From positions 633 to 64,632 of the forward strand of contig CAZPTI010000004.1 in assembly GCA_964588925.1 (NCBI GenBank): 64,000 nucleotides of DNA. The letters are read 5' to 3'. A model generated the notes under the pieces. The model was not told the DNA's origin. It worked only from the letters and a program-made list of their open reading frames with translations, and ran no database searches. The stretch comes from an uncultured Anaerolineales bacterium. GTDB lineage: Bacteria; Chloroflexota; Anaerolineae; CG2-30-64-16. Both the position numbers and the translations under genes were made by a program. Shown in pieces: positions 2,813 through 59,865 of the stretch (its first letter is position 1; each line of letters opens with the position of its first letter).

Positions 2813-3910
2813 ATGAACCCGGACATGACCCCACGGAGACAGGCCGTCCTCGGCCTGATCATCCGCTCGTACATCGAGCGGGGGATGCCGGTTGGGTCGA
2901 AGACGTTCGTGCAGTCGTACGGATTGGACATTAGCCCCGCGACCATCCGCAACGAGATGGCCGCGCTCGAAGAGATGGGCTACCTGACCCATCCGCACAC
3001 CTCCGCCGGCCGCATCCCCACTGAGGCGGGCTACCGCTATTTCGTCGAGCACCTGCTTGGCGAGACCGAGCTGCCGCTGCCCGAACAGCGCATGATCAGC
3101 CACCAGTTCCACCAGGCCCAGCTTGAGCTGGACCAGTGGGTGCGGCTGGCTGTGGCCGTGCTGGCGCACACCACGCGCAAGGCCGCGCTGGCAACGCCCC
3201 CGCGCGCGCATCAAAGCCGCTTCAAGCATCTGGAACTCATCAGCCTGCGCGACACCGTTGTGCTGCTCGTGCTCGTCTTAATGGGCGGCACGGTGAAGCA
3301 GCAGATGCTCACCCTGGACGAAGTGATCGAGCAGGAGGCGCTGAGTCGGCTGTCGAACGAGATGAACGACCGCTTAAAAGGCGCGCGCGCGTCGCAAATT
3401 GAGGCCGAAGCGCGCAAGTTGAGCGAGTCGAACCGCGAGGTGGGGCGCTTCGTCGCGCGCGTGGTCAGCCAGACCATGACTGCGGTCGACCGGCAGGGCG
3501 ACGATGCGCTGTACCGCGACGGTCTGCTGCACATCCTGGAGGAGCCGGAGTTCGCGCTCGGCCCCCAGGCGCGCAACATCGCGCAAGTGATCGAAGGCCC
3601 GTCGCTGACGAACATCGTTGCAACCGCCGCGCCGGTGCAGGTGGGCGGTGTGCAGGTGCTCATCGGCGGCGAGGGGCGCTGGCACGAGTTCGCGGACCTG
3701 GCGCTGGTCCTTTCGCGCTACGGCGTGGAGGGCGGCGCAAGCGGCCTGCTCGGCGTGGTGGGGCCGTTGAGAATGACATACGACCGCACGATCGGCGCGG
3801 TGCGCTACGTGGCGGGATTAATGAGCGACCTGGTCGGCGATTGGTATGGGGCAGGCGACCGGGCGGAAGGAGCGCAGGAAGGGAATGAACGAGAAGGATC
3901 AGATGAATGA
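2813..3910 (+). CDS. hrcA: heat-inducible transcription repressor HrcA
   Basis: ORF 2762..3910. HrcA-like N-terminus RQAVLGLIIRSYIERGMPVGSKT. Sits between CIRCE and grpE-dnaK. ATG 2813 or 2825 is the likely start, because the ORF start at 2762 lies inside CIRCE. Confidence 0.9.
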   Translation: MNPDMTPRRQAVLGLIIRSYIERGMPVGSKTFVQSYGLDISPATIRNEMAALEEMGYLTHPHTSAGRIPTEAGYRYFVEHLLGETELPLPEQRMISHQFHQAQLELDQWVRLAVAVLAHTTRKAALATPPRAHQSRFKHLELISLRDTVVLLVLVLMGGTVKQQMLTLDEVIEQEALSRLSNEMNDRLKGARASQIEAEARKLSESNREVGRFVARVVSQTMTAVDRQGDDALYRDGLLHILEEPEFALGPQARNIAQVIEGPSLTNIVATAAPVQVGGVQVLIGGEGRWHEFADLALVLSRYGVEGGASGLLGVVGPLRMTYDRTIGAVRYVAGLMSDLVGDWYGAGDRAEGAQEGNEREGSDE

Positions 3911-58271: not shown

Positions 58272-58309
58272 CATAGGTTTAAGTGGGTGACTTCTGGCAC
58301 CCGACTTAG

Positions 58310-58381
58310 TGGCGACGGACAGACTTGAACTGTCGACCCAGCGATTATGAGCCGCTTGCTCTGCCACTGAGCTACGTCGCC
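58310..58381 (-). tRNA. tRNA with anticodon CAT (elongator Met, or Ile2 if lysidinylated)
   Basis: Hand-folded 72-nt cloverleaf: GGCGACG acceptor, loop CTCATAA, T arm GACAG-TTCAAGT-CTGTC. The normal 1-72 pair means it is not an initiator. Confidence 0.85.
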
Positions 58382-58875
58382 AAACCATTCACTATTATAT
58401 CCGTTCCGCTCATCACGGTCAAATTACGGCCATTTACGCCTTCTGCTGGCGCGATTTGTTCTAACAGATGCCATGCATCCCGATACGCTGCTGACCGTGG
58501 TTTCCGTTGTCGCCGATCCGTCTCCACCATCGAAATCCCGCTGCGAAAGCCCAGAAAGACCTCAACAGGCAGCACATAGAAAACTGTTGCCTCTGGCAAG
58601 TACACCAGCGCAAAATCGAAGTCCTCGCTCGTGTAACTGCTGCGAAGCATTACGCGCCGGTTCGTCTTCGTGCGACGCGTGTCCATCATGTAGTTGGCTG
58701 ACTTCTCGTCCAGCCAAGCGGCCTTGACTTGCGCCTTAACCAGTCGCCCTTTCACGTCAAACACCAGATCATAGGGCAACCGGTCGCCTACAGGACGCAA
58801 CACGCCCCACCCGCGCTTCAGCCCCTCGAGAATCGCCGCTTGTTCCGCAATATCGCCTTTAAGCTTGGTGTCCAT
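58372..58875 (-). CDS. PD-(D/E)XK endonuclease, I-Ssp6803I-like (group I intron-associated family)
   Basis: 167 aa. KGDIAEQAAILEGLKRGWGVLRPVGDRLPYDLVFDVKGRLVKAQVKAAW fits the small PDDEXK_5-type fold. Own RBS (GAGGGTGGG). Lower GC by eye. The last 10 nt overlap tRNA-Met. Confidence 0.7.
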   Translation of the reverse strand: MDTKLKGDIAEQAAILEGLKRGWGVLRPVGDRLPYDLVFDVKGRLVKAQVKAAWLDEKSANYMMDTRRTKTNRRVMLRSSYTSEDFDFALVYLPEATVFYVLPVEVFLGFRSGISMVETDRRQRKPRSAAYRDAWHLLEQIAPAEGVNGRNLTVMSGTDIIVNGLAT

Positions 58876-58908
58876 CTTCGCCCACCCTCTTTTGGTCTGC
58901 GGATAAAC

Positions 58909-58943
58909 AAAAGACCTGGCAGCTAAAAACTGCCAGGTCTTTT
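58909..58943 (-). terminator. terminator between tRNA-fMet and the endonuclease gene
   Basis: AAAAGACCTGGCAG-N7-CTGCCAGGTCTTTT. The minus-strand stem is followed by TTTTGTTT. Confidence 0.75.
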
Positions 58944-58948
58944 CTAGG

Positions 58949-59284
58949 TTGCGGGGGCAGGATTCGAACCTGCGACCTTTGGGTTATGCTTACCACCACA
59001 GCTTTCGCTGCCCTTGCGGTTTGTGGCCTGGACTTTCCCTTCGCCCTCGGTTTCCCGGTCGGGCGCCTGCCATCAAGTCTCTACACCTTCTCGAACTCTC
59101 GCTCGAGCTTGGCTCGGGGTCACCCCGCTAACGGCTTCCCCGACTTTGACAGGTAATCACGGCGCATTACTGCGACGCAGCCCTTTCCTCGACTAACCTC
59201 CGCCAGACATCTTGCGGTGCGCCTGTCGGTCTTGCCGTTAATCTCGGAGTTGAGCCCAACGAGCTGCCACTGCTCCACCCCGCG
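58949..59284 (-). tRNA. initiator tRNA-fMet (CAT) interrupted by a group I intron
   Basis: Exon 1 (59284-59253) is CGCGGGGTGGAGCAGTGGCAGCTCGTTGGGCT. Exon 2 (58988-58949) is CATAACCCAAAGGTCGCAGGTTCGAATCCTGCCCCCGCAA. Joined, they give a 72-nt cloverleaf with a C1xA72 mismatch and GGG/CCC in the anticodon stem. Confidence 0.85.
58989..59252 (-). ncRNA. group I intron, IC3-like, ORF-less (264 nt)
   Basis: Inserted between U33 and C34. Follows a U and ends in G. Core blocks GTCAAAGTCGG, CCGAGCCAAGCTCGAG, GAAGGTGTAGAGACTTGATGGCAGG, GAAAGTCCAGG and GGCAGCGAAAGCTGT resemble the Anabaena tRNA-Leu and Azoarcus tRNA-Ile introns. Confidence 0.8.
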
Positions 59285-59322
59285 TCGAATGTTTTCCTAT
59301 TATACTCGTTGCGCCCCATCTG

Positions 59323-59700
59323 TCAATTTAGCCCCAGGGCTTTCAACCAACTCTGCCAGAGCGGGCCTTCCGGCTGCTGTGGGGCCTCCGGTTCAAGCGC
59401 CGGCGCCGGCGCCACTTGCGCACCCTGCACGCCCTTCGGCAGCCGCCCGAACATGTCCCACGCCTGGCCGGGCGCCAGCTCGCCGCGTTGGCCGCGCTCC
59501 AACTGGATTTGCAGCAGCAGATTCTGCCGCTCCAGCCGGTTTCGCCGCTCCAGCGCCTGCTGGTAATGCCCGTCCATCGTCCGCCGCGTCATCGCCAGCT
59601 CCACAAAGCCGGCCGCAAAGAAAACGACCGCGGCCAGTGCCGCAAGCGTCAGGACTCGCGACGGGCCGATCACTCTGCGCAACGACTTGAGCGCGGACAT
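59323..59700 (-). CDS. FtsB/DivIC-like septum formation initiator (single TM + coiled coil)
   Basis: MSALKSLRRV..TM..ALERRNRLERQNLLLQIQLERGQ. ATG at 59700. The ORF-track extension to 59823 runs into tRNA-Leu and is rejected. Confidence 0.55.
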   Translation of the reverse strand: MSALKSLRRVIGPSRVLTLAALAAVVFFAAGFVELAMTRRTMDGHYQQALERRNRLERQNLLLQIQLERGQRGELAPGQAWDMFGRLPKGVQGAQVAPAPALEPEAPQQPEGPLWQSWLKALGLN

Positions 59701-59781
59701 CCCTGCCCTCCGGTTGCCACAAAAAGGGTTACTGGCCCACAGGCAGAAAATCCCACGGCACAGCCGCGGGATCTGGATAGG

Positions 59782-59865
59782 TGCCGAAGGAGGGAGTTGA
59801 ACCCTCACGAGCTCAATGCTCACTAGGTCCTGAACCTAGCGCGTCTGCCATTCCGCCACTTCGGC
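59782..59865 (-). tRNA. tRNA-Leu (anticodon CAG)
   Basis: 84-nt class II cloverleaf: GCCGAAG acceptor, loop TTCAGGA, long variable arm TGAGCATTGAGCTCGT, T arm GAGGG-TTCAACT-CCCTC. Confidence 0.9.

Follow-up and report, generated by a model that had tools for sequence, protein, structure and literature searches.

What does a homing endonuclease gene (HEG) do when it stands beside a group I intron and not inside it? The question is raised by a locus on the minus strand of a contig from an uncultured Anaerolineales bacterium (GenBank CAZPTI010000004.1, positions 633 to 64,632), analysed here over this whole stretch of 64,000 nt (hereafter the window). The initiator tRNA gene (tRNA-fMet) of this locus is split by an intron without an open reading frame (ORF), and a gene related to that of I-Ssp6803I follows the tRNA. 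I-Ssp6803I, the founding member of its family, assembles as a tetramer and cleaves intron-less tRNA-fMet genes at the intron insertion site. Considering the comparative data presented below, the intron and the gene are probably the two parts of a selfish "collaborative homing" unit, carried at the initiator-tRNA gene by a bacterium of Anaerolineae type (Chloroflexota).

The endonuclease gene and its surroundings

The free-standing gene occupies positions 58372..58875 of the window on the minus strand (58875..58372 in reading direction), starts with ATG and encodes 167 residues of an I-Ssp6803I-family PD-(D/E)XK homing endonuclease. The protein matches positions 1-137 of the 138 of the Pfam profile PDDEXK_5 (PF11645) with 160.5 bits (cut-off 26.1; E=3.2e-47), and residues 2-144 align without a gap to residues 3-145 of I-Ssp6803I (PDB 2OST), with 88 of 143 identical (61.5%; E=3.1e-58). 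The family assignment, which a first-pass annotation made from the letters of the window had read from the N-terminal half of the ORF, holds in both searches, but the match spans the whole ORF and not one half of it. NCBIfam contains no model matching the 167-aa protein. In the protein database 1,816 relatives were found at E<=1e-5, the best matches being 60-80% identical and distributed over many phyla. An alignment of 77 homologues presents 54 positions that are at least 97% invariant, including E11, P34-Y35-D36 and Q49-V50-K51; we take E11 (the acidic residue of helix 1), D36 (P-x-D) and Q49-V50-K51 (Q/E-x-K) to be the active-site residues.

The ratio of nonsynonymous to synonymous divergence (dN/dS, Nei-Gojobori) is 0.05 between the window gene and that of the Anaerolineae-type locus L001 (dS saturated, 79% of the residues kept), and 0.05 between L001 and L002, a locus in an Anaerolineae metagenome-assembled genome (MAG). 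The cyanobacterial and Bacteroidota free-standing pairs give values of 0.09-0.24. By these measures the free-standing genes are under strong purifying selection and, as the ORF is intact, its catalytic positions are invariant and dN/dS is far below 1, we judge the window gene to be functional, alive by every sequence criterion. Residues 1 to about 150 correspond to the enzyme, while residues about 151-167 are read-through of the promoter and the first bases of the downstream tRNA-Met. This rewritten tail, together with truncated homologues elsewhere, would fit an inactive relic, a copy left over from an earlier invasion that is degenerating and no longer active. That explanation has hardly any probability in our view, since the tail lies past the conserved 145-residue domain, and the intact ORF, the invariant N-terminus and catalytic motifs, the low dN/dS and the gapless match to a solved enzyme all speak against it. 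Likely pseudogenes do occur in both arrangements of the family described below, L045 and L057 among the free-standing and L048 and L071 among the intron-borne genes: there the frame from the conserved ATG ends after 11-59 codons and tblastn aligns about 140 residues.

All the features of the locus lie on the minus strand, which the first-pass annotation had left unstated, and they follow each other 5' to 3' as promoter, split tRNA-fMet, hairpin, Shine-Dalgarno-like element, ORF and tRNA-Met. That annotation had placed the ORF between two tRNA genes, 73 nt past the 3' end of tRNA-fMet on the same strand and with its last 10 nt overlapping tRNA-Met(CAT), and these readings are exact: tRNA-fMet lies upstream and tRNA-Met downstream, the distance from the discriminator base (58949) to the ATG (58875) is 73 nt, and the overlap runs from 58381 to 58372. 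The HEG starts 114 bp (about 115 bp) past the point where the intron is inserted. The ribosome-binding site that had been noted corresponds to the Shine-Dalgarno-like GAGGGTGGG (58881..58889, minus strand), 6-14 nt before the ATG, which presumably plays this role. The lower GC content of the ORF was likewise correctly read, with 55.2% compared to 64.5% over the window and 60-63.5% in the flanks.

Between tRNA-fMet and the HEG, a 16-bp hairpin with a T-rich tail (58909..58943, minus strand) was identified by folding, the 75-nt spacer that contains it (58950..58876) having a folding energy of -33.4 kcal/mol (z = -5.7 against shuffles). A terminator scan left this hairpin unflagged because the stem absorbs the T-run, and folding was used instead. 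The hairpin probably serves as a leaky terminator or as a processing element.

The tRNA-fMet intron

Upstream of tRNA-fMet, a sigma-70-type promoter TTGACA-16-TATAAT (59299..59326, minus strand) matches the consensus at 12 of 12 positions, with 0.2 sites of such quality expected in shuffles, and the end of its second hexamer lies 14 nt from the tRNA 5' end. Between tRNA-Leu(CAG) and this promoter there is a conserved small ORF of about 125-165 aa (window 59323-59823, minus strand; L116 656-1054, L117 665-1051, L118 678-1052), which stops 3 nt from the -35 box; one hydrophobic stretch is predicted in it, with a charged, coiled-coil-like region after it, and a faint T2SSM match in one relative is all that Pfam gives. 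The 5' exon CGCGGGGTGGAGCAGTGGCAGCTCGTTGGGCT (59253..59284, minus strand), read directly from the sequence, ends with U33, and related metagenome contigs contain the identical sequence as the 5' half of tRNA-fMet genes that are uninterrupted. It is followed by the ORF-less insert of 264 nt (58989..59252, minus strand), located between U33 and C34 of the anticodon loop, and by the 3' exon CATAACCC...CCCCGCAA (58949..58988, minus strand; in full CATAACCCAAAGGTCGCAGGTTCGAATCCTGCCCCCGCAA), in which CCA is not encoded. The tRNA presents the C1xA72 mismatch, and its anticodon stem contains three G-C pairs. The first-pass annotation was thus right to describe an intron without ORF and an endonuclease homologue beside it.

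The 5' exon ends in ...GGGCU, with the U at the splice site, and the insert ends in G, as ...GGUAAG in nearly all of the 79 evaluable loci of the genome survey described below. The insert contains an invariant GGGC with which the exon GCU|C can pair, giving the U-G wobble of P1, and the splice site is fixed at U33|C34 because the first intron base differs in one locus (L019). The Rfam model Intron_gpI (RF00028) matches the window intron only partially, with 27.4 bits (threshold 50; E=3.6e-4) over model positions 49-158. Homologous, clearly alignable introns match the full model with 67.5 (L015), 63.1 (L008) and 53.5 bits (L115). The RNAalifold consensus of 32 ORF-less tRNA-fMet introns contains 67 pairs, 37 of them with compensatory changes; the window intron makes 58 of these 67 pairs, the missing ones belonging to the variable P1-loop and P9 hairpins, and its core is common to the ORF-containing introns. 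By its sequence and conserved pairing the insert is an intact group I intron, and splicing is predicted.

The split tRNA-fMet of the window was not detected by ARAGORN, which also overlooked the L002 locus (2585-2935), and the Anaerolineae introns score 27-32 bits with Intron_gpI, below the threshold of 50. Therefore neither a tRNA-fMet nor an intron would appear in the standard annotation of these loci. Such genomes could appear to be without tRNA-fMet, and fMet introns taken as "ORF-less" may adjoin an overlooked endonuclease.

Fused and split arrangements in bacterial genomes

A scan of one genome per species yielded 80 loci encoding relatives of the endonuclease, around which the tRNA-fMet exons were then located. 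The ORF lies within the intron at 35 loci and is free-standing after an ORF-less intron at 44, the remaining one (L058) being a fragment. The arrangement that had been described from a single locus is thus widespread and not peculiar to the window. When intron-borne, the ORF is in the P1 loop, starts 17-30 nt past the 5' splice site and leaves 90-210 nt from its stop to the 3' exon; the hosts include Nitrospirota, Blastocatellia, Caldilineaceae, Ktedonobacterales, Saprospiraceae, Gemmataceae and Patescibacteria. At the free-standing loci, an ORF-less intron of about 245-325 nt is followed by a complete 3' exon, by a hairpin with a T-run (in nearly all of them) and then by the ORF, with 53-141 nt between the tRNA 3' end and the ATG in most cases. 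These hosts belong to three phyla, with Nostocales and other cyanobacteria, Anaerolineae, and Cytophagales/Spirosomataceae/Bacteroidia. Four additional free-standing cases were found beyond the scan, in Scytonema hofmannii PCC 7110 (L115) and in the Anaerolineae-type MAG contigs L116-L118, and five other Anaerolineae-type loci (L001, L002 and L116-L118) share the anatomy of the window. As the tRNA bodies are host-specific, the genes that carry the intron are resident initiator tRNA genes and not one travelling gene. An ORF beside an intron-less tRNA-fMet was found at none of the 79 evaluable genome loci (80 scanned, the L058 fragment being non-evaluable).

Some individual loci deserve mention. 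Six cyanobacterial free-standing loci (L007, L010, L024, L029, L031 and L052) have a longer spacer of 239-2085 nt between tRNA and ORF, which suggests later insertions. The L058 fragment, in a Cytophagales MAG (JAAFJP010000020.1, about 2900-3420), consists of the last 17 nt of tRNA-fMet, the hairpin and the ORF, with no intron or 5' exon nearby, which makes it either an ectopic copy or what a rearrangement has left of the locus. L050, from a MAG that carries the label Acetobacteraceae (CAZZZY010000019.1), hardly differs in its tRNA-fMet, intron, spacer or endonuclease from the Nostoc loci L032, L042 and L054, and the contig is probably cyanobacterial and mis-binned. Second matches to the 5'-exon pattern in L002 and L072 were rejected as extra tRNA-fMet copies, being chance matches in coding sequence.

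Viral contigs were also inspected. The phage contig L081 (IMGVR_UViG_3300005936_001382, 2157-2782) encodes a 145-aa homologue between a suppressor-type tRNA(TTA) and an initiator-like tRNA-Met, the latter with a U1xU72 mismatch, a GGG/CCC anticodon stem, stem flanks unlike the bacterial consensus and a 13-nt overlap with the ORF end. It is the sole observed case of the enzyme adjoining an intron-less initiator-type tRNA. The core motif of the intron, GAAGGTGTAGAGACT....GGCA, occurs in at least 120 viral contigs (L119-L238), of which at least 31 seem to carry introns of the tRNA-Leu(UAA) type (3' exon AAAATCC...); among the at least 120 viral loci listed with this motif, none is a tRNA-fMet intron. 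Two of the viral loci (L222 and L233) gave distant PDDEXK_5-like tblastn matches of 28-34% identity. Phages as vectors of the pair were not retained as an explanation, with only one viral contig found to encode a relative (54% identity) and no tRNA-fMet intron among the viral loci listed.

Empty sites and the boundaries of the cassette

The exact 45-mer of the uninterrupted window tRNA-fMet (GGGCT+CATAACCC...CCCCGCAA) was searched in metagenome contigs and was present in 33 of them; in empty alleles of L097 or L114 type the uninterrupted region reads ...GCTCGTTGGGCTCATAACCCAAAGGTC.... Using tblastn, the endonuclease was found in none of these 33 intron-less contigs. Twelve of them share the synteny tRNA-Leu(CAG), about 570 nt, tRNA-fMet, hairpin and tRNA-Met and, as they present it without intron or HEG, these 12 contigs are empty sites. 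The upstream anchor of this cluster in the window is the tRNA-Leu(CAG) detected by ARAGORN at 59780..59865 (minus strand), whose relative position is the same in L002, L116-L118 and the empty-site contigs; the downstream anchor is the elongator-type tRNA-Met(CAT) at 58309..58381 (minus strand; ARAGORN, Rfam tRNA 67.3 bits). The comparison of related loci that the first-pass annotation had proposed thus gives a clear pattern: the ORF is absent from 33 of 33 intron-less alleles, including the 12 of the same synteny, and the intron is present at 79 of 79 evaluable HEG loci. This perfect co-occurrence is consistent with co-inheritance of the two parts.

The empty sites also delimit what has been added at the locus. 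In 9 of the 12, the spacer between tRNA-fMet and tRNA-Met is 50-56 nt and tRNA-Met begins 13 nt past the hairpin with no promoter; the hairpin of most of these nine (e.g. L097) is nearly identical to that of the window, aaaagacctggcag.... Since tRNA-Met stands behind the hairpin without a promoter of its own, the hairpin must be read through in these nine relatives. The three others (L100, L109 and L114) have a spacer of 115-152 nt with a TTGAC(C/G)-17-TATAAT promoter directly ahead of tRNA-Met. The same hairpin and the same tRNA-Met promoter occur in the window and its five filled relatives, with the endonuclease gene between them. The cassette therefore consists of a leader of about 31 nt and about 150 codons, and the hairpin and the sequence under the C-terminal tail of the ORF are, by this comparison, host-native (tRNA-fMet trailer and tRNA-Met promoter) and outside it. 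Of the strong hairpin terminator described in the first-pass annotation, the 16-bp stem and T-rich tail therefore stand, but it is a tRNA-fMet trailer belonging to the host that relatives read through.

The tRNA-Met promoter of the window, TTGACC-17-TATAAT (58394..58422, minus strand; 11 of 12 consensus positions), is inside the last 17 codons of the ORF. It is conserved in L001/L002 and L116-L118, and in L001, L002, L116 and L118 the stop codon of the HEG is the TGA within the -35 hexamer (ATT TGA CC). In the window the frame differs and translation crosses the promoter into tRNA-Met, hence the 167-aa length and the 10-nt overlap. A 9-nt repeat CCTTGAGAA that flanks the hairpin and ORF in L001 was considered as a target-site duplication and rejected, as it is not kept in L002 or in the window and its second copy is the -35 region of tRNA-Met.

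The target of the free-standing enzymes

A common target of a free-standing homing endonuclease is its own insertion region in the HEG-minus state (PMC3984707, PMC2988022), and the place of insertion, just past the tRNA trailer hairpin, is reproducible in three phyla. An enzyme of shifted specificity could then home independently of the intron, its target being the HEG-free spacer downstream of tRNA-fMet and its adjacency to the intron incidental. We consider this very unlikely. The flanking spacers are lineage-specific and have no conserved candidate target in common, and incidental adjacency would not predict an intron at 79 of 79 evaluable loci. Moreover, no alignment column among the 77 homologues separates free-standing from intron-borne proteins at >=80% per group, which together with the 54 near-invariant positions makes a switch of specificity unlikely. 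The sequences of the free-standing enzymes give no sign of a target change.

At position 59 (window numbering), arginine is found in 75% of the enzymes of hosts whose tRNA-fMet has a U27-A43 pair and in 4% of those of hosts with C27-G43. Co-evolution with the target or a phylogenetic artefact could each produce this association, which is confounded by phylogeny, and the window enzyme has a serine.

Origin of the split arrangement

Neighbour-joining trees of the protein (145 aa) and of the intron core both place the free-standing loci in at least three groups, each near intron-borne relatives, namely Anaerolineae, Bacteroidota with some cyanobacteria, and a Nostocales-type group. Monophyly of all free-standing genes was recovered in 0 of 200 bootstrap trees, and the Anaerolineae group has 91.5% support.

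The C-terminus of the intron-borne gene is translated ribozyme, from the internal guide sequence through P2, P3 and P4; in these tails ...Q-W-A-A... corresponds to the guide sequence TGGGCTGC and ...S-P-V-K-F-G-E-A... to P3-P4 CCTGTCAAATTCGGGGAAGCC. A decayed copy of this ribozyme core is present in 12-13 of 43 free-standing tails, all from the Nostocales-type clade. In Nostoc carneum (L031) the tail reads ctgtctcattcggggaagca, with 17 of 20 core bases, and a 39-nt local alignment has p<0.005. Nothing would lead a gene that never resided in an intron to encode a ribozyme core, and these sequence fossils thus demonstrate, for the Nostocales clade, an exit of the endonuclease from the intron. 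The W-A-A motif is found in about half of the closest relatives of the window and is lost in the window itself, which hints at the same intron origin in its clade. The data suggest that the free-standing state arose more than once from the intron-embedded one, possibly also in the Anaerolineae clade of the window. A possible leader fossil, ATCCGCAG, in the 34 nt before the window ATG, resembles an intron-borne leader (e.g. that of L006); it was not used, its shuffle p being about 0.07 and about 0.95 for L001/L002.

A proposed collaborative homing cycle

In the cycle that we propose, the ORF-less intron would splice from the tRNA precursor, so that the essential initiator tRNA is still made. 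The enzyme, like I-Ssp6803I, would recognise the DNA of the uninterrupted tRNA-fMet anticodon stem-loop, GCTCGTTGGGCT|CATAACCCAAAGGTC, as judged from homology and the comparative data, and the resident intron, by splitting this site, would render the host chromosome immune. An intron-less allele would be cut and then repaired from the intron-plus donor and, because the HEG is so closely linked, it would be co-converted with the intron over about 115 bp, i.e. by collaborative (trans) homing. The lack of co-occurrence of gene and intron-less target, over 79 evaluable genome loci and 33 empty alleles, lends such cleavage indirect support. Precise loss of the intron would be penalised for as long as the enzyme is active.

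The tRNA-fMet promoter likely drives the entire tRNA-fMet/HEG transcript. Expression of the HEG would most likely result from read-through of the leaky hairpin from this promoter, together with its own Shine-Dalgarno sequence, since the promoter is strong, there is no room for another one, and a promoter-less tRNA-Met stands behind the same hairpin in relatives.

Several points weigh against collaborative homing of an escaped gene as the account of this locus. The target specificity is deduced from the 61.5% identity to I-Ssp6803I and the lack of type-specific residues. The loci were sampled from the protein, and ORF-less tRNA-fMet introns with no endonuclease thus fall outside the count. The rule that the HEG occurs only with the intron is not absolute in the family as a whole, as the 54%-identical homologue of phage contig L081 adjoins an uninterrupted initiator-like tRNA. 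The trees are neighbour-joining trees of a short protein, and the clade of the window gives no significant result in the ribozyme-fossil test (p = 0.15-0.48; 10-11 mismatches in 20). Of the two histories offered by the first-pass annotation, pre-fusion/collaborative or expulsion, expulsion is favoured by the fossils in Nostocales, and these p values apply to the window's own clade. Exon homology alone would also be insufficient for the transfer of a free-standing gene between distant hosts; as such hosts share only the exons, the split pair should home only among relatives that share the downstream flank, while the fused form can cross phyla. Finally, a purely selfish endonuclease is expected to pass through the classic cycle of invasion, decay and loss, and a long vertical retention under strong purifying selection is unlike it. 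The Anaerolineae clade combines saturated dS with conserved synteny, and 3.6 kb of the window are collinear with L002 (73% identity). This pattern leaves room for a host-beneficial or addiction-type role.

Such a role is the content of an alternative, to which we give a minor but real share of probability, in which the endonuclease has been domesticated, no longer homes and is kept for its benefit to the host or the intron. It might destroy intron-less tRNA-fMet DNA that is incoming or recombinant, including initiator tRNA genes borne by phages, enforce retention of the intron, or aid splicing as a maturase; to our knowledge, no maturase activity is known for the I-Ssp6803I family. The dN/dS of 0.05 with saturated dS, i.e. 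a long divergence, fits this explanation, as do the synteny and anatomy kept in six Anaerolineae-type loci, the integration of the gene in a tRNA operon of the host, where its 3' end overlaps the tRNA-Met promoter, and the phage homologue of L081, which adjoins the phage's own initiator-like tRNA. Nevertheless, empty alleles are common in close relatives of the same synteny, and these are both the substrate of homing and the pattern that results from it. Copies are pseudogenised in both arrangements (L045, L057, L048 and L071), in line with a selfish element, free-standing and intron-borne enzymes are not distinguished by any residue change, and the GC content of the ORF is below that of its surroundings.

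A related, wider reading, which we regard as doubtful, is that the I-Ssp6803I family repeatedly escapes to a "parking place" behind the initiator-tRNA gene, the split pair being a long-lived addiction or guardian module and not a transient parasite. Escape would relieve the ribozyme of an ORF overlapping its P1-P4 core and would leave the gene near enough for co-conversion. As a guardian, the endonuclease would punish intron loss and destroy incoming uninterrupted tRNA-fMet DNA, e.g. phage-borne initiator tRNA genes. If true, this would account for purifying selection that stays strong across so deep a divergence, and a chromosomal homing endonuclease would have a function at the level of the host; mobile introns, fused or split, would then be in two interconvertible states with traffic both ways.

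Comparison with known systems

How mobile group I introns, a ribozyme combined with an endonuclease gene, originated is a long-standing question, and the collaborative intermediate is established only in two phage systems (PMC3984707). The pair described here offers many natural replicates, the same two parts being fused at 35 loci and split at 44 and in the window, in bacterial chromosomes of at least three phyla and in an essential, universally conserved initiator tRNA. It is also testable, with the cultured carriers Scytonema hofmannii PCC 7110, Calothrix and Nostoc and with the solved structure 2OST. No prior description of free-standing I-Ssp6803I homologues was found in the full-text literature searched; an earlier mention is possible, the primary papers on the enzyme and the intron being outside that coverage.

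I-Ssp6803I is encoded in P1 of the tRNA-fMet intron of Synechocystis sp. PCC 6803 (PMC3073962, PMC1995217), its ORF overlapping P1/P2 by 61 nt (PMC3073962). The window enzyme belongs to the same family (61.5%, gapless over 143 residues), and the initiator tRNA host gene, the insertion region in the anticodon loop and the homologous intron core are shared as well. The two differ in that the gene of I-Ssp6803I is intron-encoded whereas that of the window lies outside, 73 nt past the tRNA 3' end and behind the trailer hairpin, and in the host, which is a cyanobacterium in one case and an Anaerolineae-type member of the Chloroflexota in the other, where the enzyme is known from sequence alone.

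The two phage systems are F-CphI with the psbA intron in cyanophage S-PM2, and mobE with the nrdB intron of I-TevIII in T-even phages (PMC3984707, PMC2790892, PMC6083498). As in the window, a free-standing endonuclease gene adjoins a gene whose intron encodes no active endonuclease, and the presumed target is the intron insertion site, giving intron immunity and joint movement (PMC3984707, PMC2790892, PMC6083498). The phage examples concern protein-coding genes and HNH or Endo VII-type enzymes, whereas the window presents a bacterial chromosomal tRNA gene and a PD-(D/E)XK enzyme, and its pair exists both fused and split in many lineages. In at least one clade, the Nostocales, the split form derives from the fused one; this direction, out of the intron, is the reverse of the pathway proposed for the phages and of the one usually proposed.

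Also close to the system of the window are the ORF-less cyanobacterial tRNA-fMet group I introns, reportedly described by Biniszkiewicz et al. (1994; cited in PMC3610870) as being without endonuclease. They are homologous to the window intron, share its insertion site, measure about 245-265 nt with no internal ORF, and have a sporadic distribution suggesting lateral transfer. The window, the 44 genome loci and Scytonema hofmannii PCC 7110 (L115) differ from this description in that a homologue of I-Ssp6803I is encoded just downstream of the intron-bearing tRNA gene.

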